A stretch of 64,000 nucleotides of DNA from Gemmatimonadales bacterium. GTDB lineage: Bacteria > Gemmatimonadota > Gemmatimonadetes > Gemmatimonadales > GWC2-71-9. How positions within the stretch are numbered: the first letter of the stretch is position 1; each line of letters starts with the position of its first letter. The DNA lies in the NCBI GenBank assembly GCA_037189525.1, contig JBBCJC010000002.1, positions 704,001-768,000 on the forward strand. Reading direction: 5' to 3'. The notes under the pieces are model-generated. The model worked only from the letters and a program-made list of their open reading frames with translations, searched no databases and had not been told where the DNA came from. Below, piece by piece: positions 33,767-62,387 of this stretch. The translations under genes were made by a program, and so were the position numbers.

Positions 33767-33923
33767 TGGGGTCTCCGTGGTACGAGTGTCGGGAATCTGC
33801 GGGTCCCGGGTCGGGTCGCAAGGGGTGCGACCTTGCTGCCAAGGTGATACTGTCTAACGTTAGGAGCCCGGCCGCGCGCGATGCCGGGTCCCTCCGATCA
33901 ACTTTGCTGTGGAGTTGGTGACT

Positions 33924-38217: not shown

Positions 38218-38226
38218 TCGTCCGGA

Positions 38227-39780: not shown

Positions 39781-39839
39781 GCCGCTGCTCCGGACCAGGA
39801 GTGACTGCAGCTGCCGGTACTTCGGGCGCGAGCGTCCGG

Positions 39840-43975: not shown

Positions 43976-43977
43976 GG

Positions 43978-45408: not shown

Positions 45409-45605
45409 GCCTGCAACATCGGATCAGGCCGGCCCCGTGTCTAGTCCGTCCGATGTCCCGCGGTTGCGGATGTGGAAGCCGGTGTCGTCATGGCGATGCA
45501 GGAGGGAACGCTCCGGGTACCGGAGGCCGGTGTCCCGACCGGCCGGACGATGCATGCGGGCGCGATGCTCTGGACGCCCGGCCCGAACGTTCCGAGATTA
45601 TCGAG

Positions 45606-48600
45606 ATGACTCCTCCGCCCGCAGGTACCCGAATTCGAAGGCGCGAGGCCGGCTCTTCGTTCGATCGGGCTACCGGGTCGGTCCATCGCTTCGTTTTTGG
45701 CCGATTTCGCTCCCGCCGGTTGGAGGTTGAGGACGCTCATTTCAACCTGAACAGCGCGGTGCTGCTGCCGGACGCCGTCGGCGCGGACGACAGTGATCAG
45801 AATCACGTCACCGGGCTCGGCGTGCTCCGGACCGCCTACCTGCATGCGCAGCGGCATGACGCCGACCGTCTCCTGGTAGCCGGGCACACGGATCGCTTGG
45901 GGTCCGATGCCGACAACCTGACCCTCTCGCGACGACGCTCCGCCAACGTACTCCACCTGCTCCTGGGCGACCGGGATGCCTGGGCCGCGTCGTCCCAGCA
46001 ACAACACAAAAATGAGGACATCCAGGAGATTCTGGCCTGGGTCGACCGCACGTTCGGCTGGGGGTGTCATCCGGGGCCTGTCACGGCCGCGATGAACGAT
46101 CAGACCCGGGCGGCCCTCCGCGCTTTCAAGACGCGCTACAATACCGAGTTCGACCCCGATATCACGGTCACGGGATCGATCGACGTACCGACGTGGAAGG
46201 CGTTCTTCGACCTGTATTTCCTGGAGCTCAAGGGGATGCTCCGGACCGACGACGCCGGACTCGCCACGCTCCGGTCGGGGCTCCGCTTCGTCGATGACGG
46301 GAAGAAGGGGGTCGGCTGCGGTGAGCACCATCCCGTCACCGCCGCTCATACCAGTCGAGTCGACCGCCGAGTCGAACTCCTGTTCTTCGATGCTGCCGAG
46401 CTACCGCTGCTCGACTGCCACCCGTCGGCGACGGGATGCGTACCCGGCAAATGTGAGATCTATCCGCCCGGCGCGGTATTCGACGTCGATCCGATTCCGG
46501 CCGACGATTGGACCGTGCTGCCGGTGCACCTTCGGCTCCAGTGGAAGGGGCCGGATGAGTCCGAGCACGATTTTCCCCCGGGCTTTCCGGTCATCGTCGT
46601 TCCCGGCGGAGGGGGCGCGGAGATCAACGCGCAAGTCGGCGCCGACGGCCGGCTGACCTTTTCGCTCGACCGCCGGCTCGGCTCGTTCACGCTCCGATTC
46701 GAGACGGCAAACGCGGCCTTCATCACCTCGCCGCCCGGCGGGGTGACCGGCGTCGAGGAGATGGTCTTCGAGCCCGAGCTGGCGCAGCAGATCCGCGACC
46801 GGCGGCGGTTCTGGAAGCTTCCCGCGCAGTGGTCGCTGCGCATGGCGGATTGGGCGGGTCCTACGGAGGGCGATGCCACCACGGCCGTGTTTGCCAGCCA
46901 CGAGTTCACCGGCCTCGACGATGCGTCCAAGACGGTGGGCAAACGGTCGGCGCCGGTCCGCTTCGTGCTCGATCCGCATTGGCAGTTCCTCCGCCTCACC
47001 TATTTCGACCGCTTTCACAAACGGCGGATCAGCATTCCGCGCAGTGTGGTCGAAGGGTTTCTCACGGTCGCGGCCGGCGATGCGACCGATGCCGTTCCCG
47101 ATACGGTCAGCAATTGGACCGTCAACACCGACGAGGACGCGCGGCAGTGTCTGCCGTGGGTGGTGCAACGGGACGGGTCCGGCGCCGCGGCGCCCAAGCC
47201 CGACGGGGCCGGCATGCTCAGGTACCGATCGATGGCCGGTACCTTCATCGAGTCGAGCGCGCCCAACACGCGGCGGCTCGTAACGGTGAGTAGCTCGGGT
47301 GATCCCACGCCGGCCAGTCCGTTCATCAATGCCGGGTTGGGCACGTCGGTGGACCTCAACATTCCCAATGCGGATCGGCTCCGGTTCTACGACCTGCCGG
47401 AGATCTGGAAATCGCGCGGGTACTTCGGGCGGCTCACCAACGCCGCCGGCCCGGGGCCGGTGGCCGATAATTTCTACGACCAGCTTGCCACGCAACCGAC
47501 CAGCGACGAGCGCCCGCTCTCGTTTTCGCTCGACGATATCGTGCTCTTCGAGGGGACGGACACCGGCGCGCTGAGCCGGCCGCTGCCCTGGAACGGCGGG
47601 ACCGATCGGCTGGCGCTCTTCGTCAACACCTTCGCGCCGCCGTCGGGCACGGTTACGTCCGATCCGTTCCAGGGTCTGGGCCTCTACAAGCCGGATACGG
47701 CAGGGAATCTGCCGTTCCTCAGCGAACGGGTGGCCGACACGGCGAATCGCAACTACGTCGCGGACTACCCCGATTGGGTCCGGCTGGTGGTCACGGGCGG
47801 TAATCTGTTCGACTGCTTCGATCGGCGGACGCCGGACGCCGCCGGACAGACGGTCGGAGCGCGGGCGGCGGTCCGGTTCGTGGATCTGACGCCGGCCGGC
47901 GTCGGCGTGGCGCCAGGCGCGCAGAAGGTGGCCCGCTCGCCGACCGCGGTCCGATTCTTCGTGGTGCAGCCGCTTTTCGACGCCATCACGCCGTACGCCT
48001 CGCCCGACCGGCTCTTTCCGAACAGTCGGGTCGGTCGTTTCGATATCGTGCTGCTCCGGTGCTGCGACGCCGACGGTACGACGGAGATTGCCCTCAACCT
48101 CCACTATTTCCGGTTCGCCTTCACCTTCACGCAGCAAGCGATGGAGAACGGCGCGCCGGTCCCGAACCACGCCGCGCCCGCCAATCTCGCGGGGCCGGTC
48201 GCCGCGCAGTTTCAGATCGACGCCATCGGCAACACGCTGGGGCGCTGGAACGGCCAGGACGGCCGCGGGGGCGGCGTCGATATCGTGCCGGCGACGGGCT
48301 CCGCGCTGCGGGTAATGGCGCGCTGGTTCGCGCAGGCGCTGCCGACGGGCGTATCGCACTTCCTGCTCCGCGTCTACCTTCCCGATACCCGCGCATTCAT
48401 GGGCAGCTTCGACGGCGACGGCGAGATGGGCCTCGAGGACAATCCGGGGGCCTGGGTGACGCTGGCGGGTCCGCCGCTCAGCACCAATCCCGATGTCAGC
48501 GCGACACCGGGCGACAGTCTCGTCATTGCGCACGAAGCGGGGCACGGCAACGGCTTGACCGACGAGTATACCGAGTCGTCCCGGACGGCGACCTATCTCT

Positions 48601-49505
48601 CGCAGCCGGGGATCTACAGTTTCTCCCCCGGCTCGCCCTACGATTCCGATGGGCGCTCGATGATGCTCTCCAATCGGAACGTGCGGGCCCGGCATTTCTG
48701 GCACGCGGCCGAGTGGGTCCGCCGGCAGGTGCCCGGCAATCCACCGCTTCAGGTGCGCCAGCGGATCGGCGGCACCACCTACGACTATCGGTTGCCCCCG
48801 CATCCGACGCTCGGCCGCCACTATACCACCGAGCCCTGGCACCAGGCCGCCGATACCAGCCGGGGTACGCGGGGACGGTACGATGCGTTCCTCTACACCC
48901 TCTCGCAGGACGAGTTCAGCCACCAGGTGATGGCAGGCGGTCACTTTGCCGGTGGCGCGCCGGCAGACGCGTTCGACGGCATTCTGATCATCGTGGTCAA
49001 GCTGCGGGTCCGCTTTCACGAAGATCTGTCGACGGTGGTCCGACCCGGGCTGGTGCAGATGACGCGGACCATCCAGGCCGCTTTCAACGACAAATGGATG
49101 GCGTCCGGGACGGCGCGAGGACGGCGGTTCGAGCGGTGCCTGCTGCATTTCGCGCCACGGTATGTGGTCCGCAACTATCCGGGCGACGCCTCTGACGCGA
49201 CCTTCCGGGGTCGTTACCATGCCGGCATGGGGATCACCAATCAGGCCGGGCTCGACAGCCGCGTCTCGAACCTGGTGGCGACGCACGGGATCCATTTCCG
49301 GATTCGCACCGCGGCAAGCGGCACGACTGCCTGGCAATCGTCTCATCTCCGGCTGGTGGTCGACGGTGGTCCGGGTGTCGCGCCCGGACTCGAAACAGCC
49401 TTCGGCGAAATGCTGGGCATCGATGGCACGCCCATCTCGGCGGCCGCGAGCTTCGTCGGGGTGGCCCAGGCGGTGTTGAGCGATTGTCGAGTCGTCGCGT
49501 TGTGA
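45606..49505 (+). CDS. About 1300-aa candidate T6SS effector: OmpA/PGBD N-terminus, C-terminal zinc metallopeptidase
   Basis: HFNLNSAVLLP; GHTDRLG..NLTLSRRR; GCGEHHP..DRRVE; HEAGHGNGLTDEY plus SMM Met-turn; start placed at MTPPPAG. Confidence 0.8.
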   Translation: MTPPPAGTRIRRREAGSSFDRATGSVHRFVFGRFRSRRLEVEDAHFNLNSAVLLPDAVGADDSDQNHVTGLGVLRTAYLHAQRHDADRLLVAGHTDRLGSDADNLTLSRRRSANVLHLLLGDRDAWAASSQQQHKNEDIQEILAWVDRTFGWGCHPGPVTAAMNDQTRAALRAFKTRYNTEFDPDITVTGSIDVPTWKAFFDLYFLELKGMLRTDDAGLATLRSGLRFVDDGKKGVGCGEHHPVTAAHTSRVDRRVELLFFDAAELPLLDCHPSATGCVPGKCEIYPPGAVFDVDPIPADDWTVLPVHLRLQWKGPDESEHDFPPGFPVIVVPGGGGAEINAQVGADGRLTFSLDRRLGSFTLRFETANAAFITSPPGGVTGVEEMVFEPELAQQIRDRRRFWKLPAQWSLRMADWAGPTEGDATTAVFASHEFTGLDDASKTVGKRSAPVRFVLDPHWQFLRLTYFDRFHKRRISIPRSVVEGFLTVAAGDATDAVPDTVSNWTVNTDEDARQCLPWVVQRDGSGAAAPKPDGAGMLRYRSMAGTFIESSAPNTRRLVTVSSSGDPTPASPFINAGLGTSVDLNIPNADRLRFYDLPEIWKSRGYFGRLTNAAGPGPVADNFYDQLATQPTSDERPLSFSLDDIVLFEGTDTGALSRPLPWNGGTDRLALFVNTFAPPSGTVTSDPFQGLGLYKPDTAGNLPFLSERVADTANRNYVADYPDWVRLVVTGGNLFDCFDRRTPDAAGQTVGARAAVRFVDLTPAGVGVAPGAQKVARSPTAVRFFVVQPLFDAITPYASPDRLFPNSRVGRFDIVLLRCCDADGTTEIALNLHYFRFAFTFTQQAMENGAPVPNHAAPANLAGPVAAQFQIDAIGNTLGRWNGQDGRGGGVDIVPATGSALRVMARWFAQALPTGVSHFLLRVYLPDTRAFMGSFDGDGEMGLEDNPGAWVTLAGPPLSTNPDVSATPGDSLVIAHEAGHGNGLTDEYTESSRTATYLSQPGIYSFSPGSPYDSDGRSMMLSNRNVRARHFWHAAEWVRRQVPGNPPLQVRQRIGGTTYDYRLPPHPTLGRHYTTEPWHQAADTSRGTRGRYDAFLYTLSQDEFSHQVMAGGHFAGGAPADAFDGILIIVVKLRVRFHEDLSTVVRPGLVQMTRTIQAAFNDKWMASGTARGRRFERCLLHFAPRYVVRNYPGDASDATFRGRYHAGMGITNQAGLDSRVSNLVATHGIHFRIRTAASGTTAWQSSHLRLVVDGGPGVAPGLETAFGEMLGIDGTPISAAASFVGVAQAVLSDCRVVAL

Positions 49506-50800
49506 GGCGCCGGATCGGGTGGCTTGCCGCGGCGCTGACGGTCGGCGCTGGATGTACACGAGGAGCGGAGATGGAACAGTCCTTCAAACGACTTTCGGGA
49601 ACCGCGGTGGAGTCGGTGCGGAGCATCGATCCGATTGTCTCGATCCTGGATCAGGCCGTGGTGACGGTAACGCCGGCCCCGTCCGAGTCCGGCGATTTCG
49701 TCCGCCCCTTGGGCAATCCCGAGCAGAACTCGCGACTCGGTCGGGCCCTCCCGGACGGCGCCTGGAAGCTGCGCTGGCGCGCGCCCCTCCGCGGCTTAGG
49801 CACTCCGCTCGACGTGCTGAGCGCAGGTGACCGCGTCGTGGTGCGTGCCGAATCGGGCTGGATGCTGTTCGATGCGGACGGTGAGATGCTGGCGCGCGGC
49901 CCCGCGGGCGACGGCACCATGCTGCTCGATCCGAACGACGGACTCCTGCTCGGCCTCGATGGAGCCGGATTTCTGGCAGGATGGGGTCTCGCCGACGGGG
50001 CTCGGCGCTTCCGGATGATCCTCACCATGCCCGGCGACCTGACCTACACCTTCATCGATCGACCCGGTGATCTCTACCTCGCCTCGGTCGAGCGGCGTTT
50101 GCCGCCGCATACACCCGGAGTGCCGAGTGCGGCGTTCGTCGAGCGGATCACGCTGGGCGCGCCGATCGCGGTCGACGACAACGGCACGCTCCGATCCGCG
50201 GCGCGGCTCGGCGATCTGGTGCGCGAAGTCTCGGACCTCCAGATCGCGCGCCGAGGCGAGACCTTCGTGCTGGCCGTGACCGATACGCTCTACCGTGCCG
50301 ACCTGGCGCTCAGGCTCTCTGCCCGGCTGACGGGATCGTTTCGCCCGCTAGCACTGAGCCTGGACGAGCAGGGTCGTGCGCACCTGGTGGTCATGACGGC
50401 GACAGGGCCCGCCCTGTGGGTGGTCGAGCCGGACGGGCGCCGAGTGGTCGACCGGTCCGTGCCGCTCACGTCCAAACGGCTCCTGGCGCCGCCCATCATC
50501 AGCCATCACCACCAGATCTATCTGGTCTACGCTGATCGGATCACGGCGTTCGAGTCCGACGGGCGTTCGTGGTGGGATACGAGATTGGATACCATTGCTG
50601 GTGCCGTGCTGACGGCCGATGACCAGTTGCTGGTGGCGGCGGGCCGGCAGGTGCTGGCGTATCGCGGCGCTGCGGCCGCGGTGCTTGCCACGGCGCTCGA
50701 CCCGTTGGTGACGCCGCCGATTCTCTCGGGGACCGGCCTCCTGCTGGTGGCGTCGGCCGATGCGCTCTTTGCCTACGAAGCAACCGGAAAGCGGCCATGA
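49502..50800 (+). CDS. Lipoprotein with PQQ-like beta-propeller features, candidate immunity protein
   Basis: GTGA overlap with the effector stop; MRRRIGWLAAALTVGAG-C lipobox; LRWRAP and W-terminated strand repeats. Confidence 0.7.
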   Translation: MRRRIGWLAAALTVGAGCTRGAEMEQSFKRLSGTAVESVRSIDPIVSILDQAVVTVTPAPSESGDFVRPLGNPEQNSRLGRALPDGAWKLRWRAPLRGLGTPLDVLSAGDRVVVRAESGWMLFDADGEMLARGPAGDGTMLLDPNDGLLLGLDGAGFLAGWGLADGARRFRMILTMPGDLTYTFIDRPGDLYLASVERRLPPHTPGVPSAAFVERITLGAPIAVDDNGTLRSAARLGDLVREVSDLQIARRGETFVLAVTDTLYRADLALRLSARLTGSFRPLALSLDEQGRAHLVVMTATGPALWVVEPDGRRVVDRSVPLTSKRLLAPPIISHHHQIYLVYADRITAFESDGRSWWDTRLDTIAGAVLTADDQLLVAAGRQVLAYRGAAAAVLATALDPLVTPPILSGTGLLLVASADALFAYEATGKRP

Positions 50801-51129
50801 AGATCAGCCAATCGCAGGCCGACGCGCTGGGCGGCTGCAGCGAGTGCGCCCATGCGCCGGTGGAGGGCGGCTCATCCGGTGGCGAGGGGGGGCCGTCGGT
50901 GGTGGTGGCCGATCCAACCAAGTCGGCGTGGATCGTGATCGAGCTGATCGACTCGACCGGCGCGCCACGCGCGGGCGAGGCGTTTTCGGTACGCCCGTCG
51001 GGTGGATTGCCGATTGAAGGAACGCTGGACCCGAAAGGCAAAGTTCGCATCGAAGGGATCGACCCGGGAAGCTGCGCCGTGTCCTTCCCCAAGCTGGGGT
51101 ACCAGGCCGAGCAGGCAACGGCAAGCTGA
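50797..51129 (+). CDS. Small stand-alone transthyretin-like (PAAR/VgrG-tail-like) protein
   Basis: ATGA overlap; CSEC; WIVIELIDSTGAP..GTLD.KGKVRIEGIDPGSCAVSFP. Confidence 0.75.
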   Translation: MKISQSQADALGGCSECAHAPVEGGSSGGEGGPSVVVADPTKSAWIVIELIDSTGAPRAGEAFSVRPSGGLPIEGTLDPKGKVRIEGIDPGSCAVSFPKLGYQAEQATAS

Positions 51130-51177
51130 GCACAGGGCGCGGCCGTCCGGGTGGATTCAAAACGATCGAGAATCTCC

Positions 51178-51732
51178 ATGTCTCTGGTCAATGAGCGACT
51201 GCTGTCCATCATCCAGGTCCGGGAGTGGGCCGTGCGCGGTCGACTCTTTGCGATCATCGATGCATGTGATGCGCCGGCCGTTCCCCTCCGTGCCCGTGAC
51301 GCGGGGCCGGAGCGGGCCGTTTCGCTCTATCGCGGCCGGGCGGAGGAGGACCTCTGGGCAGTGGCGCCGTATCTGTTTCGGGTCGATCCCGAGCTCTTCG
51401 ACTGGATCAGCGCCGAGCTGTGGTCGACGTCGTGGGGCATCTTTGCCGTCGCGGATACGAGCCTCGACGCGATGCGACTCCATTTCCGGCGCTTTCTGAC
51501 CGTGCGAAATCCGCAAGGCGAGCCCTGGTACTTCCGGTTCTACGATCCCGCCGTGTTGCCCACGTTCCTGGCGACCGCGGACGCCGAGCAGGTGATCGAC
51601 TTCATCGGACCGGCGCGCGCTCTCGCGGCGACCGATCCGGTTTCGTACGGAATCCGGGTCTTTACTAGGCGTGACGGTCCAATGAGGGGCGAGCGTCCGC
51701 GCCCCGCGATCGCAGTCCGGCGCGCGCGTTGA
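51178..51732 (+). CDS. DUF4123 T6SS effector chaperone (Tec/Tap-1-like)
   Basis: LFAIIDAC; SLYRG; APYL; WGIF; LHFRRFLTV; YFRFYDP; start could be 51151. Confidence 0.88.
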   Translation: MSLVNERLLSIIQVREWAVRGRLFAIIDACDAPAVPLRARDAGPERAVSLYRGRAEEDLWAVAPYLFRVDPELFDWISAELWSTSWGIFAVADTSLDAMRLHFRRFLTVRNPQGEPWYFRFYDPAVLPTFLATADAEQVIDFIGPARALAATDPVSYGIRVFTRRDGPMRGERPRPAIAVRRAR

Positions 51733-52267: not shown

Positions 52268-52297
52268 TTGACCGGGCCTAACGGTTGCCGCTACACT
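52268..52297 (+). promoter_or_regulatory. Candidate sigma-70 promoter of the T6SS structural operon
   Basis: TTGACC-N18-TACACT, 25 nt before the ATG at 52323. Confidence 0.55.
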
Positions 52298-52322: not shown

Positions 52323-53468
52323 ATGCCAACATATAGTGTCGATCTCACGACCGAGCGTGGCGTTTCGCGGGTGTCCTTTACCCTCGATGACGACCGCCCG
52401 TTAGGGCTGCAGATCAATCATATCCTCGAGGAGTTTCGCCAGCGGGGACTGGTGCTCAAGGGTGGTCCCGAGGACGAGTTGATGGTCGCCTGGAACGGGC
52501 GGCCGGTCGATGGCAGCAGGACGCCGCATGCGCTCGGCATCTCGCCGCTGCACGCCATCGAGTTGCGGATGCGGCCGCGGAGCGCCGCCGTGGTCGCCCG
52601 GGTCGAACCCCCCGCGGCGCCCTTCCTGTCGAAGACATCGTACCTGGCGCTGGTGACGGCCTGTACCGGCGCGGCGATCGCGTGGATCGTGACGGCCACG
52701 CTGTTCACGGATCTGGGAGATGTGCTGACCAGCTACGGGACGCTAGACGTCGTGGTGGCCACCGTGCTCGGTGCGGCGGTCGGGGGTGTCCTGCTAGGTG
52801 CGCTTGCGCGGGCTCGAAGCGAGTCGGTGGTGGTTGGGCTGGCGGCGGGAATCGGGCTCGGAGCCGTCGGGGCGGCCATGGGGGCATTCTCGGGTCTCGT
52901 GATTGCGGGGTACGCCGGGCTCGGCGACTCGCGCCAGAGCTTCATCGTCGCGCGGTTGGTGACCTGGGCGTTGGCCAGCGGCTTCCTCGGCATGTTCCTG
53001 GCCTTTCGCTGGGTACGGACGCATGCCGTGGTACCGTTCGAATCGCTGCTCTGGGGCTGTGGAGCCGGTATCGTCGCCGCCTTGCTGCTGTCGTTGCCGG
53101 GGCCGTCCGATCTCTGGCAATTGCTGGCGTTTCTGGTGGTCGGCGCGGGGACGGGCGCCGGTGTCGTCCATCCCGTCATGGTCCGTTCGCTCGGCGTCAT
53201 CGAGCTGGAGCGCACCGGTGCCGGAACCGTGGGCCTGCTGGGTCATCGGGGCTGGATGGTGCCCTTCCACGGAACGGCTGCGGTCGGTCGAACCCTGAAT
53301 GTGCGCAGCGAGCAGGGACGCTGCCAGGTGGCTCTGACCGGGGCGGCGGCTGAACCGGTCACCCTGGGCGGACGTGCGGTCAGCGGCCCGCACGACCTGC
53401 TCAATCAGGATACCATCACTATCGGGTCGCGCGTCTTCCTCTACCGCCGTTTTCCGGAGGCGAGCTAG
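52323..53468 (+). CDS. Membrane protein: ubiquitin-like (YukD/EsaB-like) domain, about 6 Gly-rich TMs, degenerate FHA-like domain
   Basis: WNGRPVDGSRTPHALGI..IEL ubiquitin-like pattern; six hydrophobic segments; VGR..VTLGGRAV..LLNQDTITIG FHA-like tail. Confidence 0.65.
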   Translation: MPTYSVDLTTERGVSRVSFTLDDDRPLGLQINHILEEFRQRGLVLKGGPEDELMVAWNGRPVDGSRTPHALGISPLHAIELRMRPRSAAVVARVEPPAAPFLSKTSYLALVTACTGAAIAWIVTATLFTDLGDVLTSYGTLDVVVATVLGAAVGGVLLGALARARSESVVVGLAAGIGLGAVGAAMGAFSGLVIAGYAGLGDSRQSFIVARLVTWALASGFLGMFLAFRWVRTHAVVPFESLLWGCGAGIVAALLLSLPGPSDLWQLLAFLVVGAGTGAGVVHPVMVRSLGVIELERTGAGTVGLLGHRGWMVPFHGTAAVGRTLNVRSEQGRCQVALTGAAAEPVTLGGRAVSGPHDLLNQDTITIGSRVFLYRRFPEAS

Positions 53469-54754
53469 TGAAAGGCGCGGCGGGTGTCGCACTCTGCCTG
53501 ACTCTCTTCGGGGCGTCGGGTCTGGTCGGGCAGGACGGCGACGTGACGCTGCTGCGCTGCGGCGAGCGATCGGCTCGGCCGTGTCTGATGACCACCGTCT
53601 CACTTCGTCCGGAGCAGGCTCGTCAGTTGGCGGGGCGCTCGCCGGACAGCTTGAGCGTGGCCTGGCGGGCGCGATTCCTGCGGGACACCAGCCTGGCGGG
53701 CCGCGCGCAGAGAACCTGGTCGAGCGCAATGCGCGGAAATCGGGTGCTGATCCTGGTCGATGTCAGCGGCAGCATGAAAAATCTGGGGATCGGGACCGCC
53801 AAGCTCGTCGTCGGAAACTTTCTCCGTACGCTCGATTCGCTGCCCGCCGGGTCGGTCCGGGTGGCGGTTGCGCCGTTCGGCAGTGTCAGCGTTGCCGACC
53901 GGATTGCCGCTGCCCGATTCACGACGCCCGACTCGGCCCGCCACGCGATCGACCGGCTGCCCAATCCGGATCGGGAGAATACCGGGCTGTATAGCGCGGT
54001 GGAGGCAGGCGTCGAGCGGCTGTCGCGTGAATTGGCGGAGGCTGGCGAGGGCCTCGGTGCACTGGTCGTGCTGACCGATGGCGACAACGACGTCGGGCGG
54101 CCTGGAGACGATCCGGGATTGCTGGCGGGGACCGCCGGATTGACCCGTGCCGCGCAGGCCGTGGATCAGAGTGCGGCATTCACCACCATCGTCGGGATCG
54201 GCAATCTCAACGCGCAGGCGTTGAGAACTCTTGCGGGCCCCCGAGGGCGGGCGTATCTCAAGAGCTTGGACGCGTATGAGCTGGCCCGTCCGCTGGCGGA
54301 AGTGCGCGACCTGTTTGCGATCAGCTGGGAAGTGCTGTTCCCGTTGTCCGTCGCGCGCGAAGGTCTCGGGCGAGGGCCTGCGTCGTTGGTGCCTTCGCTC
54401 GGCGCCGTGGCGGGAACGGCATTGTGGCGGCCGCCCGTGATTGCATTGCCCGCGTTCGTCGGCGTGGCGTCGTCGGCATTGCTCCCGAGCGGCGTTGGAG
54501 CGGCTCCGGTCGGTTTCGTTCTGGATCGGCGCTGGCCGCTCGCGTTGATGGCGGGGGTGCTTCTGTTCTTGTTATGGTTCGTGGCTCCCCGGTTGTTGTG
54601 GCCATCATCGCCTGCGGTGGCGCTTGCGCAGGGTGCGCCGACACCGCCCAAGGTGGTGTCACCGCCCGCGGGTGGATTGCGAGCCGATGTGAAAGAAGTC
54701 GCGCCGCGCCGGCCGTCGGACACGACGGCGGCCAAAGCGCGGCGCGCCCAATAG
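53468..54754 (+). CDS. Exported vWA-domain protein with C-terminal TM anchor
   Basis: Signal peptide; MIDAS DVSGSM, T (NTGLY), LTDG; C-terminal TM; TAGTG coupling to the upstream gene. Confidence 0.85.
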   Translation: MKGAAGVALCLTLFGASGLVGQDGDVTLLRCGERSARPCLMTTVSLRPEQARQLAGRSPDSLSVAWRARFLRDTSLAGRAQRTWSSAMRGNRVLILVDVSGSMKNLGIGTAKLVVGNFLRTLDSLPAGSVRVAVAPFGSVSVADRIAAARFTTPDSARHAIDRLPNPDRENTGLYSAVEAGVERLSRELAEAGEGLGALVVLTDGDNDVGRPGDDPGLLAGTAGLTRAAQAVDQSAAFTTIVGIGNLNAQALRTLAGPRGRAYLKSLDAYELARPLAEVRDLFAISWEVLFPLSVAREGLGRGPASLVPSLGAVAGTALWRPPVIALPAFVGVASSALLPSGVGAAPVGFVLDRRWPLALMAGVLLFLLWFVAPRLLWPSSPAVALAQGAPTPPKVVSPPAGGLRADVKEVAPRRPSDTTAAKARRAQ

Positions 54755-54800: not shown

Positions 54801-55271
54801 ATGCCAGTCGTGAAGGTCACGCGGGCCGGGGTCAAAATGGCGCCGCGACAGGTGCCGACCGAGACCACCGCGACCATTCTGCCGATGACCGTCGACCGGG
54901 TCGGGCAGGAGGCGCTCGAGGACGAGCAGCCCACCAAGGTGTCGAGTCTGGCCGAAGCGTTCGAGAAGTTCAAACCGGCGCTCGATTTCAAAGCCAACGT
55001 GGGCGACGAGGGAACCGAGTTTGCGGCGGACCTCGAGTTCAAGAGCCTCAAAGACTTCGACCCCAAGCGGGTGATGACGCGCGAGCCCGGCAAGCGGAAC
55101 GACGTCGCCGATCTGCAGAGTCAGATCGATCTGCTGCACCGGATGCGCGAGCGGTTCGCCGTGTTGTCGGTCCGGCGGGCCTGGGACAATCCCGAGCAGC
55201 GGAAAGAAATCATCGAAGCGGTGGCCGAGTTCCAGGATGCGTTGCGGAAGATCTCCGGAGGTGACGCGTGA
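54801..55271 (+). CDS. tssB: T6SS contractile sheath small subunit, Bacteroidota-like
   Basis: SLAEAFEKFKP..LEFKSLKDFDPK and C-terminal WDNPEQRKEII helix; GTGA overlap with tssC. Confidence 0.8.
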   Translation: MPVVKVTRAGVKMAPRQVPTETTATILPMTVDRVGQEALEDEQPTKVSSLAEAFEKFKPALDFKANVGDEGTEFAADLEFKSLKDFDPKRVMTREPGKRNDVADLQSQIDLLHRMRERFAVLSVRRAWDNPEQRKEIIEAVAEFQDALRKISGGDA

Positions 55272-56602
55272 GCGAGGTCAAGACCGCGCAGGACATCATC
55301 GCCAAGAAGGGCGCGAGCAAGGCGATCGAGGAAATCTTCAACGTGATCCATCCGGCGCCCTCCAAGACGGCGCTCAAGGACATTTTCACCGCCGAGTCGG
55401 CGTCGCAATTCCTCAAACGGGTAACCGACTTCTCGAGCCTGCTGTCCGCCGAAGACAGCTACGATCAAGCGCTCAAGAAACTCGATGCCCAGCTCAAGTC
55501 GCTCGAGTCGACCCGCGACGAGGTGCTCAAGCAGATCTACGAGAAGATTCGCCCGATCGAGCGGAGCTACCGTGAAATCCAGCTCTTCTTCGAGAACGCG
55601 GAGGTTCGCGACAGCGTCCAGCGTCCGCCGGTCGAGTTCTTCATTTTCAACGCCGACACTCGTGCGGTCACGAGCGACGTCAACAGCTCCACCGTGCAGG
55701 CCGTCGACGAGTTCGTCCAGAGCCGCAACGACAGCTTCAACTTCCGCCAGTTCATCTGCAACATGGTGCTGCCGGGATACGTGCCGGATAATGTCCGGAA
55801 GCGGTTCGAGGACATGGCCAACAAGTGGGGCATGCTGCTGATCGGCGATCTCAAGGACGAGCTGTCCTTCAAGTCGCTCTCCGATCAGTTCCGGACCGAT
55901 GGCGGCGCGTACGAGTTTCTCAAGCGGCCCGAGGATCGTGCCGCGGCCGACGTGGTCATCGCGGGTTTCGTCAAGCTGCGCGACAAGCACTGGTTCGAGG
56001 CGGCGGACGACGACAGCGAGAATGCGGACCTATACGGCCCGTCGTCGCTTCTGTTTGCCGGGTCGCTCGCCCGGACGGATCGGACCACGGGCGGCGGTAT
56101 TGCGCAGGGACCGGTCGGGATGATCTTCGGACAGATTCGCGGCCCCGAAAAAGCCCGGATCGAGCCGCGGATTTCTCAGATGGAGCATCTGTCGATGGAA
56201 CGACAGGTCGTCACCATTATCCGGAACGAAGACAATCAACTCTGCTTCGTGGGCAGCCGGACCCAGGCCGAAGATCCGAAGGGCGTGCTCAAGTTCTTCA
56301 CGTCCTACCGGGTGCTGCGTTACCTGGAGCGCCGGATTGCCGTCTATCTCCGGCGGGTGGCCGAGCAGCGGCTCACGCGCGATCTGGTCAAGGAACAGGT
56401 GCGCAATCCGATCGAGGAGTTCCTCGAGGACGAGCTCAAGAAGGGAACGATCTACAAGTACGACATCGATATCGACATGGACGAGGACAAGTTTGCGCAG
56501 GGAGTCCTCGACATCAAGCTGGAAGTCTTGCCGGTTGGTCCGGCCGAGACCTTCGAGCTCAAGATCGATACGCCCGACTTCAAGAAGGACGGTAAGGAGT
56601 AA
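55268..56602 (+). CDS. tssC: T6SS contractile sheath large subunit (DUF5458-like, subtype iii-like)
   Basis: IERSYREIQLFFEN; MVLPGY; sheath-like C-terminus (RVLRYLERRI..IKLEVLPVGPAE). Confidence 0.8.
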   Translation: MSEVKTAQDIIAKKGASKAIEEIFNVIHPAPSKTALKDIFTAESASQFLKRVTDFSSLLSAEDSYDQALKKLDAQLKSLESTRDEVLKQIYEKIRPIERSYREIQLFFENAEVRDSVQRPPVEFFIFNADTRAVTSDVNSSTVQAVDEFVQSRNDSFNFRQFICNMVLPGYVPDNVRKRFEDMANKWGMLLIGDLKDELSFKSLSDQFRTDGGAYEFLKRPEDRAAADVVIAGFVKLRDKHWFEAADDDSENADLYGPSSLLFAGSLARTDRTTGGGIAQGPVGMIFGQIRGPEKARIEPRISQMEHLSMERQVVTIIRNEDNQLCFVGSRTQAEDPKGVLKFFTSYRVLRYLERRIAVYLRRVAEQRLTRDLVKEQVRNPIEEFLEDELKKGTIYKYDIDIDMDEDKFAQGVLDIKLEVLPVGPAETFELKIDTPDFKKDGKE

Positions 56603-56616
56603 CGGCGGAGGATTGC

Positions 56617-57009
56617 ATGGCCGATGACGAGGGCCGGGCCGACGATGTCGGCGGGGTGAATCCGGACGGGTCGCCCAAGCGCGATCTGCGGTACAGCAGT
56701 CATGAGGATCGCTCGGTCCGGGTCGATCGCGAGCTGGACGGCACCGGTCGCCTGGCTCGTGGTGATCGTACCAAGATGTCGGTGCTCAATTTCTCGTCGC
56801 GTCACCCGGTCCGCACCGAGCGCGATCCGGAGTTCACCTTCCGCCCCGCTCCGGCCGCTGCCTCGGCGCCGCCGGCTGCGGAGGTTCCGGCTCCCGCCGC
56901 GTCGGAGGCCAAGGCGCCTGACGATGCGGCGGGATCGACGGCTCCACAGGAGTCGGCCGATCGATCGCCGTCCGTGATGGATCGGGTGAAACATCTGTTC
57001 GGGTTTTAG
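56617..57009 (+). CDS. 130-aa hypothetical protein inside the T6SS operon
   Basis: GGAGGA RBS; Ala/Pro linker; C-terminal amphipathic VMDRVKHLFGF. Confidence 0.65.
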   Translation: MADDEGRADDVGGVNPDGSPKRDLRYSSHEDRSVRVDRELDGTGRLARGDRTKMSVLNFSSRHPVRTERDPEFTFRPAPAAASAPPAAEVPAPAASEAKAPDDAAGSTAPQESADRSPSVMDRVKHLFGF

Positions 57010-57036: not shown

Positions 57037-57477
57037 ATGGCCACGTATAACCGCGTCAAAGTCAAAATCGATTCCGTCGAGTTTCGTCCGGTCGAGGCCA
57101 AGTACACCATTACGCGCAATGCCAACCAGGTTGGTCGTCGGGTCGGCGACTCGCTGATCGGCCGGGTCGAAGTCTGGATGGACGCCAGCGTGCTGGACAA
57201 CCTGCCGCAGTCCGCTCAGATCGAACTCTGGAAAATCGCCACCGAATCCAAGGACCCGCTCCATAAGGTCGAGGTGACGTGGTACCTCGATGAAGCGGAC
57301 AAAGTGCTGCATGCGGTCGAGTTCATGGGCTGGATTGCCGCCTTCGAGGTCGGGAATCCCCAGGCCGACGTCTCGGGCGGCGGTGTCAGCTCGGTGCAGT
57401 TCAAGAACCTGTTGCGGCTCGAACTCGCCGTCGTGGTCGACGAGTCGAATGTGAGCAAGCACAAGTTCACCAAGTAG
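57037..57477 (+). CDS. tssD: T6SS tube protein Hcp/TssD (subtype iii-like)
   Basis: 146 aa, beta-rich; YTITR..GR..GRVEV; position between sheath and baseplate genes. Confidence 0.72.
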   Translation: MATYNRVKVKIDSVEFRPVEAKYTITRNANQVGRRVGDSLIGRVEVWMDASVLDNLPQSAQIELWKIATESKDPLHKVEVTWYLDEADKVLHAVEFMGWIAAFEVGNPQADVSGGGVSSVQFKNLLRLELAVVVDESNVSKHKFTK

Positions 57478-57507: not shown

Positions 57508-57900
57508 GTGCCTTCGATTGCCCTTCCTCTCCGGATCGATGCGACCGGTTCGCTCGTCCGGCAGGATGATTTCGACGCGGTCGTCGGAATCATCGGCAAG
57601 ATGGCCGGAACGACCTCGACCACCTGGCCCCACGCCAGGTGGTTCGGGTTGTTCGAAGCCTTCATGGAAGCCGGGCGCCGTCAGCAGCAGGATCACGAAT
57701 CGCTCAAGGACGCCATCAACCTCGCCCTCCGCGAACTCGGTGTGCAGCAGTTCCGGGTCCAGGCGGTGACGACGGTGCGGAGCGATCACGGTTTCGGTCA
57801 CCGCCACTTCCGGATCACCATGACCGACGCCGAGGGTCGCTCTCGTTTTGCCGAGTTGGATGGAGAGGGCCGCCGCGCCGAGACGGAATCGCCATCATGA
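57508..57900 (+). CDS. tssE: gp25-like baseplate protein
   Basis: Size, IALPLRI start, SLKDAINLAL helix, position before vgrG. Confidence 0.6.
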   Translation: MPSIALPLRIDATGSLVRQDDFDAVVGIIGKMAGTTSTTWPHARWFGLFEAFMEAGRRQQQDHESLKDAINLALRELGVQQFRVQAVTTVRSDHGFGHRHFRITMTDAEGRSRFAELDGEGRRAETESPS

Positions 57901-59744
57901 AAGTCACCGTCTTCGTCACGATCGGCGATCTGGTCCTCCGCAACAGCGAACTCGACGTCCTCGAGGTCGTGCAGGAACTCGGTCAGCATACCACCTGCCG
58001 GATCGAGTTCATTCGGGATTCCGCGCTGGATGTTTCCCTCGATCAGCTGCTCCGTGACGAAGTGGTGGTGACGCTCAAGGCGGAGGGCGGCCAGATCATC
58101 CCGATCTTCCGAGGAACGATCGGCGACGGGGTGCAGAGCCACCTGCTCAACTATGGCTCGCGTTTCCGTCTCGAGGCCACCTCGGAGTCCGAACGGCTCG
58201 AGTACGTCAATACCGCCTACTTTCCAAACAGCACGTTCGGCGACGTGGCCCAACAGTTCGGGGTCCGGATCGACGGATCGATCCGCCGCGACCAGACGCC
58301 ACTCGACCTGGTCCAGTGGAACGAGACCGAGTTTGCCTTCCTGAAACGGCTGGCCGACGAGCACGGCGCTTTCCTGGTCACTCACGGCCCGCAACCGGAG
58401 ATCCGGACCGAGTTCAAGGATGAGGGTTGGGAACTCATCTGGGGCGACAGCCTGCTCGAGGCGAGCGTGCGGGCGCGACCGACCAGTCATGGCGTGGCGG
58501 GCGCGAGTTACGATCCGCTCACCAAGCACACCCATCGGCACGCGGGCGTCAGGCAGAATCCGCCATCGTTAGGCGGCGCCGCGAAGATCGTCAATGCCGT
58601 GACCGACCTGGCGCGGCAGATGGGCGGCGACCCCGGGCTGGAGTTTCCGAGCGCGCGGGAGACGACGCATCAGAGTTTCAAGACCATTCTGCGCCAGGAG
58701 AGCGAACGGGCTCTCGGAAGCGCGGTGCTGGTCGAGGGACACAGCGTCAAAGTCGGTCTGGGCGCCGGTGACCTGGTCGAGTTGGTCGGCGGGGTCAACT
58801 TCACCCTGCCGACGACCGGCAAGCTCGGTCTCATCAAAGTCGTCCATACCTTCCAGGATCAGCACTACAGCAACCGGTTCGTGGCCACGCCGTGGAAGAC
58901 GTTTACCAACCTCGAGCGTCCCCCGACCCCGCGGGAGCGCACCGTGGTGACGGCGGAAGTGGTCGAGACGGCGACGGATCCAGAGAAGCTGGGACGGATT
59001 CGCATCGCCTACCGATGGCAGACCGGCGCCGATATGACCGGTTGGGCCCGGATCGCGGCCCCGCACGCGGGCAACGGGCGCGGCATCATGTTCCTTCCGG
59101 AGGTCGGCGATGAGGTGCTGGTGGCCTTCGACGACGGCGATCCGGAACACCCGATCGTGATCGGCGCGCTCTGGAACGGCCGGGACCGCCCGCCCGAGGT
59201 TACCGAAAAGAACACCGCCAAGCGGATCATCACCCGGTCGGGCAGCACGATTCAGTTGCTCGACGACGAAGGGAAAGAAACGGTCGAGATCTTCACGCCG
59301 GAGGGGCGCTGTCTGGTCCAGCTCACTAACCAGGGTGGGCATCCGGTCGTGACCGTCTATTCCGATGGCGACATCGCGCTGGAGGCCAAAGAAGAGATTC
59401 GGGTCAAGTGCAAAAAGCTGGTGCACGACGTGGAAACCGATGTAATCGTCAAAGCCGGTGGTGACGTTTCGGTGGATGCTGCGGCCAATGCCGTCATCAA
59501 GGCCAACGTCGACGCGGCGCTGTCGGGAACCAATGCGATTCTCAAAGGCGCCGCCATGGTCGAGTCGGTCGCTGGCGGCGTCAACAACGTCGTCGGGGCC
59601 ATGGTGCAGATCCAGCCGCCCGGTTTCATGGGCAAACAGGTCAATCCCAAGTCGGTCTCGGTGCCCAATGTCGACGTCGGCTCTCGGCCGACGCCGCAAT
59701 CGGCTGATCCGGAGCGGACGGCGGATCCGGAGACGCCGCGATGA
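57897..59744 (+). CDS. vgrG: VgrG/TssI spike protein
   Basis: QWNETEFAFLKRLA; DPEKLGRIRI; WARIAAPHAG; FLPEVGDEVLVAF; IITRSG; beta-helix tail; ATGA overlap with tssE. Confidence 0.93.
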   Translation: MKVTVFVTIGDLVLRNSELDVLEVVQELGQHTTCRIEFIRDSALDVSLDQLLRDEVVVTLKAEGGQIIPIFRGTIGDGVQSHLLNYGSRFRLEATSESERLEYVNTAYFPNSTFGDVAQQFGVRIDGSIRRDQTPLDLVQWNETEFAFLKRLADEHGAFLVTHGPQPEIRTEFKDEGWELIWGDSLLEASVRARPTSHGVAGASYDPLTKHTHRHAGVRQNPPSLGGAAKIVNAVTDLARQMGGDPGLEFPSARETTHQSFKTILRQESERALGSAVLVEGHSVKVGLGAGDLVELVGGVNFTLPTTGKLGLIKVVHTFQDQHYSNRFVATPWKTFTNLERPPTPRERTVVTAEVVETATDPEKLGRIRIAYRWQTGADMTGWARIAAPHAGNGRGIMFLPEVGDEVLVAFDDGDPEHPIVIGALWNGRDRPPEVTEKNTAKRIITRSGSTIQLLDDEGKETVEIFTPEGRCLVQLTNQGGHPVVTVYSDGDIALEAKEEIRVKCKKLVHDVETDVIVKAGGDVSVDAAANAVIKANVDAALSGTNAILKGAAMVESVAGGVNNVVGAMVQIQPPGFMGKQVNPKSVSVPNVDVGSRPTPQSADPERTADPETPR

Positions 59745-59751
59745 TCCGGTC

Positions 59752-61482
59752 ATGAGCGAGTTCAAGAGCCTCCGTCCGCCCGAACGCAGCGCGACCGACA
59801 TTGCCCGGGAGCTGCGCGAGCACTTTACCCGGTCTCTCTATGAGGTGACGGGTGCGCAGGCCCAGCCCGATCCGGTGCTCGGCGCGCTCTTTCATGCGCT
59901 TGCCGTGCAGGTCGATCGGGTCTATCAGGAAGCGGATCAGGTATTCTTTGCGGCGGCGCTCGATGACCTGATTCGCGGTCTCGGGATGCCCGCACGGCTG
60001 GCTCGGCCGGCCCAGGCCGTGGTGCAGTTCTCTCAGCTGCAGGGCCGAGAGACGCTTGCTCCGGAGACGGAGCTGATCGGCTATCAGGCGACCGGTGCGC
60101 AGATCGTCTTTACCCCCGACGCGCCGGTCGACATTGCGCCGACGGAAATCGTCTTTGCCGGAGTTGCGGAGGCGGGACGCCTGTCGACCCTGCCGGGGGC
60201 GCGGTTGCCTTGGACCAATCAGCCGATCCTGCCCGGGAATTCGACGCCCATCGACCTCTCGCCGGCCGCCCCGACCCTGTTCCTCGCGTTTGAAACGGAC
60301 GCCGAACACCTGAGCCGGATCGGTCTCTACGTGGAGGCCGCCAGCCAGGCATCGCCCATCCTTGGGGTGCTGGCCCGGAGTCCGTGGCAGTTGCTCGACA
60401 ACCGCGGACAGGTCTCCGAACGCGGGGTGCTCCGGGCGTCTCGAACGCGTGGGGGTATGCAGCGGCTGGATTTCGTCAAAGACCGGCGGCCTGCGCTCGA
60501 GGATACCGGCACAATCGACCGTCTGGTCCCGCTGGTCGGCGGTGTTTACGGAGCAAGCGTATGGCTGATGCCCGAACTGACGCCGGATCGTCGCTGGCGT
60601 TCGGTGATCCCGCCGTCGATTGCCACGGCAGTGCCGCGGGTGCTTCCTCCCGGGCAGGAACGAGCGCTGGATCGCCAGCTGGCCTGGTTGCAGGTGCCTC
60701 TCCCGGCTGGCAGCCGCGGCGTGGCGAGCCAGATTGCCCGCATCGCGGTCAACTGTGTCACGGCGTCGAACATCGAAGCGTGGAACGAGCAGATCGACTT
60801 CGGCCGGATGGGCGCCGTAGTCAGCCACCGTCCGCTTGGCGCAACCGATCGGCATATCATGGGTGTGCTCGGTGTGACGGGTGAAGCCGGGACCCCCTAT
60901 CTCGATATCTCGGATCTGGAGGCGCCGGCCGGATCGGGGCGATACCGGTATCGGGGCAACGCCAGCTTCGAGTTCACCCCTGCCAAGCAGGCGAGCGGGC
61001 GCTTCGACGGCTACGGAATGATGCGACTCCTCTACTGCGACGGCGAAGGCGGCAACGGAATCGCGGTGGGGGAGATCAAGCAGATCCGGAGTGAGCTTGC
61101 CCGGAATCCGACGGCGCGGGTGGCCAGCCTGACGCCGACACGGGGCGGGGCGGCGCCGCCGGCATACAGCGATGCGCGCGACCGTTTCGCAGAGTTGCTC
61201 CGCACTCGCGAACGAATCGTGACCCCTGCCGATATCGAGATCGCCGCCAAGGCGACCGATCCCCGGATCGGCAACGTCAGCGTTACCAGCGCATCGCAGA
61301 TTACCGATACCGGGCTGGAACTGGTGACCGATGTAACGGTTTCGGTGTCGCCCGACGACTTCGCGGACCCGGAGGCGGAACTCGAACGTCTGCGGACCGA
61401 GCTGGAGCAATACCTCGGCGAACGCTGCATGATCGGGCAGCAAATCCGGGTCGCGATTGCCGAGGAGCGGCGCGCCTCATGA
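59752..61482 (+). CDS. tssF: Baseplate wedge protein TssF (gp6/baseplate J-like)
   Basis: DPVLGALFHALA; ARPAQAVV; VNCVTASN; GG..RERIVTPADIE. Confidence 0.8.
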   Translation: MSEFKSLRPPERSATDIARELREHFTRSLYEVTGAQAQPDPVLGALFHALAVQVDRVYQEADQVFFAAALDDLIRGLGMPARLARPAQAVVQFSQLQGRETLAPETELIGYQATGAQIVFTPDAPVDIAPTEIVFAGVAEAGRLSTLPGARLPWTNQPILPGNSTPIDLSPAAPTLFLAFETDAEHLSRIGLYVEAASQASPILGVLARSPWQLLDNRGQVSERGVLRASRTRGGMQRLDFVKDRRPALEDTGTIDRLVPLVGGVYGASVWLMPELTPDRRWRSVIPPSIATAVPRVLPPGQERALDRQLAWLQVPLPAGSRGVASQIARIAVNCVTASNIEAWNEQIDFGRMGAVVSHRPLGATDRHIMGVLGVTGEAGTPYLDISDLEAPAGSGRYRYRGNASFEFTPAKQASGRFDGYGMMRLLYCDGEGGNGIAVGEIKQIRSELARNPTARVASLTPTRGGAAPPAYSDARDRFAELLRTRERIVTPADIEIAAKATDPRIGNVSVTSASQITDTGLELVTDVTVSVSPDDFADPEAELERLRTELEQYLGERCMIGQQIRVAIAEERRAS

Positions 61483-62387
61483 CGGCCGTGATGCCCGACC
61501 TGGCGGCGACCTATCGGGGGGTGCGACACACCCTCGATTCGGCCGTGCCCGCCTTGCTCAGGCTCGGAGTTGATCCCGATCGAATCATCCTGACGGCGGC
61601 GGGCGCCGGCTGGGTGCGCGGCACTATCGTGTCGCAGGAGCCGGCTCCGGGTGAGATCCTGTATCCGGAAACCCGGGTCACACTCGGCGTGGCCGGAACT
61701 GGGGCGCTCGAATCGGTGCCGTTCCCGATGCGCGACAGTGCCGACGGGGAGTTCCGCATCGATCGGCTCTTCAGCCTGTTCGACAACCATTTCCTTCGCC
61801 TGACGCACCATCTCCGGGCGGCGGGTGGCCTGCTCGATCTCCATCCGGATGACAGCGAAGGTGCCAACCGATGGATCGTCGAGATCTTCCGGTTGAGTTC
61901 GGCGCCGTGGCCGAGGGAACGCTGGTACGATGTTGCGCGGCTTTTGCCGGCGTTGCATCGGATAGCGGGCCGGGTCGATGGTCCCGCGCTGGCGCTCAAG
62001 GCGGTGTTTCGGATTCCGGCCTCGCCGATTCGTCTGGTGGCCGGGATTGCGCCGGTTCCGGACGATCGTCGCACCCGACTTGGTGTTCGGAACGGACGAC
62101 TGGGGGTGGACGCATTGATCGGCGACGGGATTACCGCGGCCGTCGGCGTCGAAATCGATATCGGGCCAGTCGATCTTCGCACCTACCGCAGGTTGCAGAC
62201 CGCGGCCGAGTATCGCCAGCGCCAGGCGCTCTATCGGCTGGTGCTTCCGGCCCATCTGCAGCATGACGTGCGTGAACGTTGGATCGTCGGCGACCGGCGC
62301 GATGCGGCCGTCCTGGGCGATTCCGATCGTGAGGCGGCGCTGGGCGTCAACAGTTACCTGGGTTCGCCCGGGAGGAGTGCAGCGTAA
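61479..62387 (+). CDS. tssG: Baseplate wedge protein TssG
   Basis: LLPALHRIAG..LKAVF; RLGVDALIGD; IDIGPV; LVLPAH; ATGA overlap with tssF. Confidence 0.75.
   Translation: MTAVMPDLAATYRGVRHTLDSAVPALLRLGVDPDRIILTAAGAGWVRGTIVSQEPAPGEILYPETRVTLGVAGTGALESVPFPMRDSADGEFRIDRLFSLFDNHFLRLTHHLRAAGGLLDLHPDDSEGANRWIVEIFRLSSAPWPRERWYDVARLLPALHRIAGRVDGPALALKAVFRIPASPIRLVAGIAPVPDDRRTRLGVRNGRLGVDALIGDGITAAVGVEIDIGPVDLRTYRRLQTAAEYRQRQALYRLVLPAHLQHDVRERWIVGDRRDAAVLGDSDREAALGVNSYLGSPGRSAA

Follow-up and report, generated by a model that had tools for sequence, protein, structure and literature searches.

As far as PMC10781749 goes, only two membrane complexes have been described for type VI secretion systems (T6SSs), and the T6SSiii subtype, with its TssNQOPR complex, is reported only from Bacteroidota. 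According to the same source, the cytoplasmic domain of TssN in that subtype is EccD-like, TssK co-purifies with TssN, and TssR contains a von Willebrand factor A (vWA) domain. The published Gemmatimonadota and Acidobacteria plasmid T6SSs belong, by the account in PMC9113992, to subtype i4b. Here we describe a T6SS locus in a 64,000-nucleotide stretch of DNA (the window) from a Gemmatimonadales bacterium (assembly GCA_037189525.1, contig JBBCJC010000002.1, positions 704,001 to 768,000; G000:C2:704001-768000 in our numbering), whose genome, G000 (Gemmatimonadota), is 98.1% complete. Two genes stand at the head of the operon: gene A (52323..53468, plus strand), which encodes a 381-amino-acid (aa) inner-membrane protein with a ubiquitin-like (Ubl) domain, six transmembrane (TM) helices and a forkhead-associated (FHA) domain, and gene B (53468..54754, plus strand), which encodes a 428-aa protein with a signal peptide, a vWA domain in a beta-sandwich, one TM helix and a cytoplasmic tail. 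The locus is a T6SS variant with an undescribed envelope module, and its link to ubiquitin-like conjugation is strong and testable. We hold it somewhat probable (about 0.58) that A and B form the conserved core of this module in Gemmatimonadota and Acidobacteriota, with A as the hub and B as its periplasmic partner, which may point to an undescribed means of anchoring or triggering a T6SS. No description of such a system was found in the open-access literature searched; earlier prokaryotic ubiquitin surveys may list such operons.

With the Bacteroidota T6SSiii the locus shares a TssC of the PF17541 family, the absence of TssJLM and a similar toolkit, namely a multi-TM protein with an EccD-like domain (TssN there, A here) and a periplasmic vWA protein (TssR there, B here). 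The large sheath subunit gene tssC (55268..56602, plus strand) matches the T6SSiii-type profile PF17541 over its full length (E 3.7e-21) and not the VipB-type PF05943, which matches in three other genomes (G067, G215, and G224) and nowhere in G000. All four plasmid matches of this TssC are from Bacteroidota, and a profile of the window's own TssC type recovers four of four Bacteroidota TssC proteins at 1e-13 to 1e-16. In a 20-row TssC tree, the clade of the window's type has a support of 95/96, with its position relative to subtypes i and iii unstarred and on long branches. When the tree was rooted with extracellular contractile injection systems (eCISs), the clade fell outside i and iii together at 93/91, again unstarred, and a sister relation of this sheath clade to T6SSiii was not supported. 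Judged by its sequence, the sheath is T6SSiii-like but a separate deep lineage. The small sheath subunit gene tssB (54801..55271, plus strand; PF05591, E 1e-5, over the cut-off) precedes tssC.

The earlier note had described A and B as resembling neither TssJLM nor, by eye, TssNOPQR, and the searches bear this out. TssL, TssM, and TssJ were each found in 0 of 5 genomes carrying A (95 to 100% completeness class), with a positive Escherichia coli control; TssN, TssO, and the vWA part of TssR were found in 0 of 4 such genomes, with a positive Bacteroidota plasmid control (W01), and tblastn and profile comparisons for TssN, TssO, and TssR in G000 were also negative. For TssP and TssQ, single-sequence tblastn searches (with a PKD protein and a DUF5457 protein) gave no hit in G000. 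Homology of A to TssN and of B to TssR is not claimed because profile and HMM-HMM comparisons, which used two and one reference sequences only, were negative. The architectures also differ: the Ubl domain of A is N-terminal and A carries an FHA domain, unlike TssN, and B is TM-anchored and not a lipoprotein, unlike TssR. A further difference from the Bacteroidota machine concerns TssK (62387..64000, plus strand, over the Pfam cut-off and running 27 bases past the window end), which resembles the single Bacteroidota TssK used for comparison only in the part ahead of the head domain. When A was modelled in complex with the TssK head (residues 352 to 500), the score was 0.01 against a mark of 0.32, which speaks neither for nor against an interaction. 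The DNA beyond the window (G000:C2:768033-774000), which the earlier note had wanted inspected, encodes tssH, an FHA membrane protein (gene C), a Ser/Thr kinase, and, on the minus strand, a second FHA membrane protein (gene D), with no canonical membrane complex. A lineage of Gemmatimonadota and Acidobacteriota with neither known complex found raises the question of how its sheath is anchored, and A and B are the named candidates.

The two open reading frames (ORFs) lie where they had been placed, and both are conserved, with 24 close homologues of A and 33 genomic loci. In a sample of 301 genomes of Gemmatimonadota, the window's type of TssC was found in six, and a strong TssK match and full-length A were found in the same six; four other genomes gave weak, T6SSi-type TssK hits, two of which were confirmed by VipB. 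Partial A hits in four further genomes comprised two Ubl-less paralogues and two weak matches. Gene B is next after A in 29 of the 33 loci, the other four being cut off by a contig edge. At 22 of the 33, core T6SS genes are in view, and at seven PAAR or DUF4123 cargo, while four are too short; 32 of the titled loci are from Gemmatimonadota and one is labelled Bacillota. Three loci duplicate others and were dropped from the neighbourhood clustering, and related genomes are not independent, so the co-occurrence counts overstate the number of events. The proposal of a distinct envelope module stands, because A and B co-occur with this tssBC clade and no canonical complex lies downstream. No match to gene A was found on plasmids. 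A profile search gave 285 relatives of A, a distant group included, and such widespread distant 6TM-FHA proteins, some of them fused to vWA domains or kinases with no sign of a T6SS, would fit a general kinase/FHA/vWA envelope-signalling pair that hitch-hikes with a T6SS island and does not act on it. We consider this highly improbable, because A and the window's sheath type coincide in 6/6 genomes in both directions among the 301 and because the pair stays linked to the same tssBC/tssK clade in two lineages despite inversions and changes of gene order.

The conserved module extends beyond A and B and takes in three further membrane proteins and a kinase. Gene order differs between loci and the gene set is constant; C, the kinase, D, A, and B are contiguous in L034 and L040. 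Gene C encodes a signal peptide, a helical domain, a TM helix, and an FHA domain in which SRYH and NG are kept in 10 of 10 proteins, with the Arg missing. Gene D encodes an FHA domain, a TM helix, and a periplasmic domain. Gene E (33918..35786, plus strand) combines two repeats that by eye resemble kinase N-lobes, flanking a zinc ribbon, with a TM helix, PEGA, and Sel1 repeats. It lies upstream of A in 19 of the 33 loci and ends no more than 130 bp from A in 11, so that A and B head the operon in this genome, as first described, and not elsewhere; here E is displaced, with about 16.5 kb of other genes, including PAAR and effector cargo, between it and A. The periplasmic domain of D (G000:C2:772641-774000; also L067:10644-11918, minus strand) has invariant D-H-x-E-H, G-x-A-x-D, and H-x-H residues, which suggest a metal site. 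We take these His, Asp, and HxH residues to recall M15 peptidases; a profile search of the Protein Data Bank (PDB) with this domain gave nothing relevant, so a peptidoglycan-hydrolase role is only a guess.

Gene A has no Pfam or NCBIfam match, and its AlphaFold2 model (pLDDT 86.4, built on 23 sequences) has three parts. Residues 1 to 87 (52323..52583) form a ubiquitin-like beta-grasp domain without a terminal Gly, as judged from the model and a profile. Residues 104 to 287 (52632..53183) form the six Gly-rich TM helices expected from the first inspection, in line with six hydropathy peaks and 15% Gly. Residues 289 to 379 (53187..53459) adopt an FHA fold that lacks both the SxxH loop and an RAQxK loop found in relatives; in a structure search this part matched 3poa (Z 11.2, rmsd 1.8, 80 aligned). 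Phosphothreonine-binding FHA domains have conserved GR, SxxH, and NG motifs. Throughout the Gemmatimonadota family of A the SxxH loop is deleted and GR is not conserved, and the FHA-like tail without SxxH is thus as originally read. The top Ubl row for the N-terminal domain was the Ubl of EccD5 (7b7j; Z 10.6, rmsd 2.1, 83 aligned), with other Ubl folds just behind at Z 9 to 10. The YukD/EsaB-like N-terminus proposed earlier therefore holds at the level of the beta-grasp fold and not of sequence: gene A has no YukD Pfam match, and neither the 33 full proteins nor the 6 isolated domains examined gave one at E values up to 5, in a search whose filters drop weak matches. No conserved Gly follows the last Ubl strand in 27 of the 33 A proteins.

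The nearest parallels for such a domain are in type VII secretion. As PMC12637312 describes it, YukD fixes an FHA domain of YukB and recruits the pseudokinase YukC, non-covalently. Both the type VIIb YukB-YukC-YukD set and the present module combine a Ubl with FHA domains and with a membrane protein whose cytoplasmic part is kinase-like, and in type VIIa EccD, as in A, an N-terminal Ubl sits on a TM bundle. The present locus differs from type VII in its contractile sheath, in the lack of a YukD Pfam match, and in that the Ubls related to A's have a C-terminal Gly and are encoded near E1 and E2 enzymes. Type VII genes (WXG100, EssC) were not seen among the recurring neighbours, a list to which no family search aimed at them was applied.

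These relatives come from the distant group, from which a sample of at least 64 metagenome loci was fetched. In the 64 listed, a vWA gene follows the 6TM-FHA gene in 50, TssC of the window's type is present in 26, and TssK in 18; D and full-length E were undetected, and C is a separate gene in two (flanks of up to 10 kb). The named relatives of one metagenome TssC, among the best 120 of 850 matches, are three, all from Acidobacteriota. The profile of A's Ubl matches 41 of the 64 loci (E 1e-8 to 1e-17 for 40 of the 41), in three states. In at least 20 loci the Ubl is a free protein ending in Gly, accompanied in 20/20 by a ThiF/E1, a membrane zinc finger, and a separate E2, and in 0/20 by a JAB. 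In at least seven loci it is fused through Gly to the E2, and 7/7 have E1, zinc finger, and JAB. In at least 14 loci, 10 of them with 2.8 kb or more of upstream DNA in view, it is fused to the 6TM protein as in A; none of these 14 has E1, E2, or JAB, and 11 have the zinc finger. The other 23 loci, most of them short, have no Ubl in view. Among the loci listed, the terminal Gly is kept in 20/20 free Ubls and at the same position in 7/7 Ubl-E2 fusions, and it is lost in the fused 6TM forms. ThiF and JAB were confirmed by Pfam over the cut-off, with E2 (PF00179) below the cut-off and RING faint; the catalytic motifs are present in 28 of 29 E2s (HPN..C), 12 of 12 JABs, and 29 of 31 E1s (GxGxxG), and 27 of the listed loci have a Ubl ending in Gly together with E1 and E2 carrying catalytic motifs in one operon. 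The RAQxK loop stands at the start of the FHA domain in 24/24 readable proteins of the free-Ubl and Ubl-E2 loci and in 0/13 fused ones, its Lys being replaced by Arg in 9 of the 13; the loop is absent in Gemmatimonadota. On the basis of these profile matches, the N-terminal domain of A is homologous to a Ubl whose gene, in other loci, lies with those of E1, E2, a membrane zinc finger, and JAB.

Burroughs, Iyer, and Aravind reportedly predicted E1-E2-RING-JAB operons in bacteria in 2011. The related loci share with known bacterial Ubl operons (Bil, Bub, CBASS, and E1-E2-RING-JAB) a Ubl ending in Gly, a ThiF/E1, a UBC-type E2, a JAB, and a zinc finger; they differ in being part of a T6SS locus, beside the 6TM-FHA/vWA pair, and in the membrane anchoring of the zinc finger, and the window differs further in lacking the enzymes and having the Ubl fused. 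In G000, no E2, JAB, or zinc finger was matched, and two partial ThiF-like matches lie on other contigs; an E2 query matched 2 of the 301 genomes, none of them among the six carriers. An unrooted tree of the Ubl states (42 rows after eight near-duplicates were dropped) requires at least two state changes; we infer from the zinc finger that remains and from the differing junctions that loss of the enzymes with repeated fusion is favoured. In one fused lineage (L112, L117 to L121, L123, L131, and L139), the last FHA strands are missing from the C terminus of the A homologues, and a segment resembling them follows the Ubl, ahead of the first TM helix, so that the FHA domain appears to be split. 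In the Ubl-E2-type locus L101:9212-11853, ImpE and TssA genes follow TssK, and the same clusters occur in L102 and L104.

Building on these three states, a more ambitious account, which we offer tentatively and put somewhat below even odds, is that this separate T6SS lineage has an envelope module of a third kind, in which eukaryote-style ubiquitination of the 6TM-FHA hub at a defined Lys, by E1, E2, the membrane zinc finger, and JAB, licenses assembly, A being the pre-ubiquitinated end state, reached by fusion more than once. The main, envelope-module reading already includes such steps: in the free-Ubl relatives, E1 would activate the Ubl, E2 would receive it, and the 6TM-FHA protein would be tagged, probably at the Lys of the RAQxK loop, and this tagging may license assembly. 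In the Ubl-E2 loci, the predicted role of JAB is to cut the Ubl-E2 precursor. In this genome, the tag would be genetically fused and the enzymes and the loop lost, making the licensing step constitutive. The domain could instead be a non-covalent structural subunit in the manner of YukD or EccD, with E1, E2, and JAB modifying other targets, for instance a phage protein or tail-like components of the T6SS, and the fusion recording only a non-covalent partnership. For that, YukD acts without conjugation as far as PMC12637312 describes it, bacterial Ubl conjugation systems work in phage defence by the account in PMC10557695, EccD5 is the best match of A's Ubl, and the acceptor Lys is a correlation only; it sits badly, though, with the retention of the terminal Gly wherever the Ubl is free or fused to E2, with the restriction of JAB to loci in which a precursor needs cutting, and with the joint loss of Gly, E1, E2, and RAQxK loop in the fused forms, and we judge it improbable. 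The three Ubl states are a natural experiment that predicts the substrate (the 6TM-FHA protein), the site (the RAQxK Lys), and the role of JAB. As PMC11601603 presents it, ubiquitination in bacteria has mostly been connected with phage defence until now, and for several such operons no function is known. If licensing by a Ubl is correct, one bacterial Ubl operon would gain a structural target, Ubl use by type VI and type VII machines would be linked, and a bacterial secretion machine in two abundant soil phyla would be under the control of ubiquitin-like conjugation.

In the envelope-module reading, A would act as an inner-membrane hub that recruits the baseplate, the role held by TssN in Bacteroidota, and its Ubl would clamp the degenerate FHA domain, stabilise it, and recruit partners, like YukD in type VIIb. 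Several observations weigh against the readings preferred here. The TssJLM and TssNOPQR negatives cover carrier genomes of the Gemmatimonadota only. No lipoprotein or outer-membrane part is found among A to E; with no outer-membrane component identified, the module probably anchors at the inner membrane only. A cassette of Ubl-less A, vWA-less B, C, D, and short E, its conserved motifs intact, occurs detached in G300, where no VipB, VgrG-OB, or TssC/TssK of the window's type was matched, and in G224, whose only T6SS is a T6SSi on a contig other than the cassette's, so the module can persist without its own type of machine. Pairs of 6TM-FHA and vWA proteins with kinases lie at L103, L132, and L133 with no T6SS gene in the DNA fetched, and distant 6TM-FHA/vWA fusions (P0125 and P0168) show no sign of a T6SS. 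The loop Lys also occurs in 19 of the 21 readable proteins without a Ubl in view and in 4 of the 13 fused ones, and the Ubl states are held by few clades, so that the perfect counts reflect few independent events. Finally, B keeps its signal peptide in fusions of A with B, so these fusions need not imply binding.

Several of these points, together with the signalling-type domains of the module (FHA, kinase, vWA, and Sel1) and an invariant Thr in the tail of B, are what would be expected if A and B were only a trigger, analogous to the Tag/PpkA/Fha pathway, with C, D, E, or an unlinked complex that went unrecognised serving as the physical anchor. The persistence of the cassette in G300 and G224 without the window's type of T6SS and the related pairs with kinases outside T6SS loci fit such a role in particular. 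Yet no membrane pair other than A and B was seen with this sheath in both lineages, the neighbourhood clusters contain no further recurring candidate anchor, and the Ubl is kept in the T6SS-linked copy of A and lost in the detached copies; we therefore regard a trigger-only role as unlikely, if deserving of some weight. A Ubl-less copy is also found in G038, beside its T6SS, and the Ubl-less database proteins look derived because they are nested within the fused family (support 93 to 94). Four database proteins (P0026, P0031, P0045, and P0052) are A and B as one ORF, and the two share a single frame at L012:9089-11482, with the B signal peptide retained inside such fusions. Kinase-6TM-FHA and vWA-TM-FHA fusions are seen, without T6SS genes in view, in P0100, P0125, and P0168 and at L103, L132, and L133, the membrane pair being used in other signalling loci. 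The earlier suggestion of a link to vWA/FHA/ubiquitin-like sets in FtsZ/tubulin-like loci fell away, with Tubulin_2 in 0 of 5 genomes and three positive controls.

B has a signal peptide (residues 1 to 21) and a Pfam vWA match (E 8e-11), and in its model (pLDDT 86.7) the vWA domain (residues 89 to 285; 53732..54322, plus strand) is inserted into a beta-sandwich, followed by one TM helix (residues 355 to 377; 54530..54598, from the model and hydropathy) and a tail. The exported vWA domain with an intact metal-ion-dependent adhesion site (MIDAS) noted at the outset is thus present: D98, S100, S102, T172, and D204 are kept, and the MIDAS residues and a Cys pair (C31 and C39) are invariant or nearly so in 25 homologues. 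The vWA domain is an insertion because vWA-less paralogues keep the sandwich and the tail. This arrangement, with the vWA domain in a beta-sandwich before one TM helix, is also that of the integrin beta headpiece, and structure matches of B include integrin beta chains and archaeal ArnA/ArnB (FHA-vWA); these matches reflect the vWA fold that all share and barely test the sandwich, and no homology is claimed. B may be an integrin-beta-like periplasmic partner of A whose MIDAS engages a ligand. In its tail, the motif E410-T420 (54695..54727) ends in a Thr420 that is invariant in 25/25 and is a candidate site of phosphorylation and FHA binding; a [DE]-x-T-hydrophobic motif is present in 35 of 39 distinct complete B tails from the metagenome loci listed, a loose pattern counted without a shuffle control. 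In the T6SSi switch of PpkA, TssL, and Fha, TssL is phosphorylated at Thr14 and bound by Fha, according to PMC3953482. The present module likewise combines a kinase encoded in the locus with FHA proteins and an inner-membrane protein whose cytoplasmic Thr is conserved, and it differs in lacking TssL and TssM, in having membrane-bound FHA domains, and in that phosphorylation of the B Thr is only predicted. The locus kinase would phosphorylate the tail Thr, and gene C, whose FHA domain is better preserved, would read it.

Within the operon, the A stop and the B start share one base (TAGTG), and tssB starts 46 bases past gene B, preceded by the ribosome-binding-like GAGGGGAG. Upstream of A is a weak sigma70-like promoter match (52268..52297, plus strand; 9/12, one found against 0.4 expected), a consensus match only. 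The genes after tssC, all on the plus strand, are a small ORF (56617..57009) with a conserved N-terminus, a probable tssD/Hcp (57037..57477; 146 aa, a conserved gene assigned by position and size, without a family match), a probable tssE (57508..57900; position and size, no significant family match), vgrG (57897..59744; PF04717, PF05954, and TIGR01646), a probable tssF (59752..61482; TIGR02243 at E 1.5e-8, below the cut-off, and synteny), and tssG (61479..62387, Pfam over the cut-off). The PASTA-like start of TssG (61479-61718; PF03793, 26 bits, over the cut-off) is odd for a cytoplasmic baseplate protein, and one metagenome TssG has a similar N-terminus. TssH, an 884-aa Clp ATPase encoded after tssK, shares 40% identity over 691 aa with ClpV of the T6SSi locus of G067. 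This related genome (L073, L076, and L078) has, besides its canonical T6SSi locus, an eCIS-like locus that is separate from it, and it has no A. In L034, L036, and L040, tssH is missing between tssK and gene C.

A VgrG spike and PAAR are both present in the locus by Pfam and NCBIfam matches. The cargo block between E and A (42245..51732) has six gene products: an OmpA/peptidoglycan-binding protein, a PAAR fusion, a 1350-aa putative effector, a beta-propeller protein, a 110-aa ORF, and a DUF4123 adaptor. At 42245-45408, PAAR is fused to further domains with a peptidoglycan-binding tail and adjoins the OmpA/peptidoglycan-binding protein, and this pair recurs near A and B in 7 of the 33 loci. At 45453-50800, the putative effector, which has weak OmpA-like and M6 metalloprotease matches, is followed by the beta-propeller protein; the latter has a lipoprotein-like N-terminus and is a candidate immunity gene product, and the effector/propeller pair is absent at the same place in G126. 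Between gene E and the cargo block (35816-39876) lie an Imelysin gene, an adjoining long ORF, and an M48 peptidase gene. The small ORF between tssC and tssD, undetected in the 64 metagenome loci listed, has a conserved N-terminus of about 65 aa in 14 of the 33 loci, and two tandem tssD-like genes are present in L026 to L031 and in many metagenome loci.

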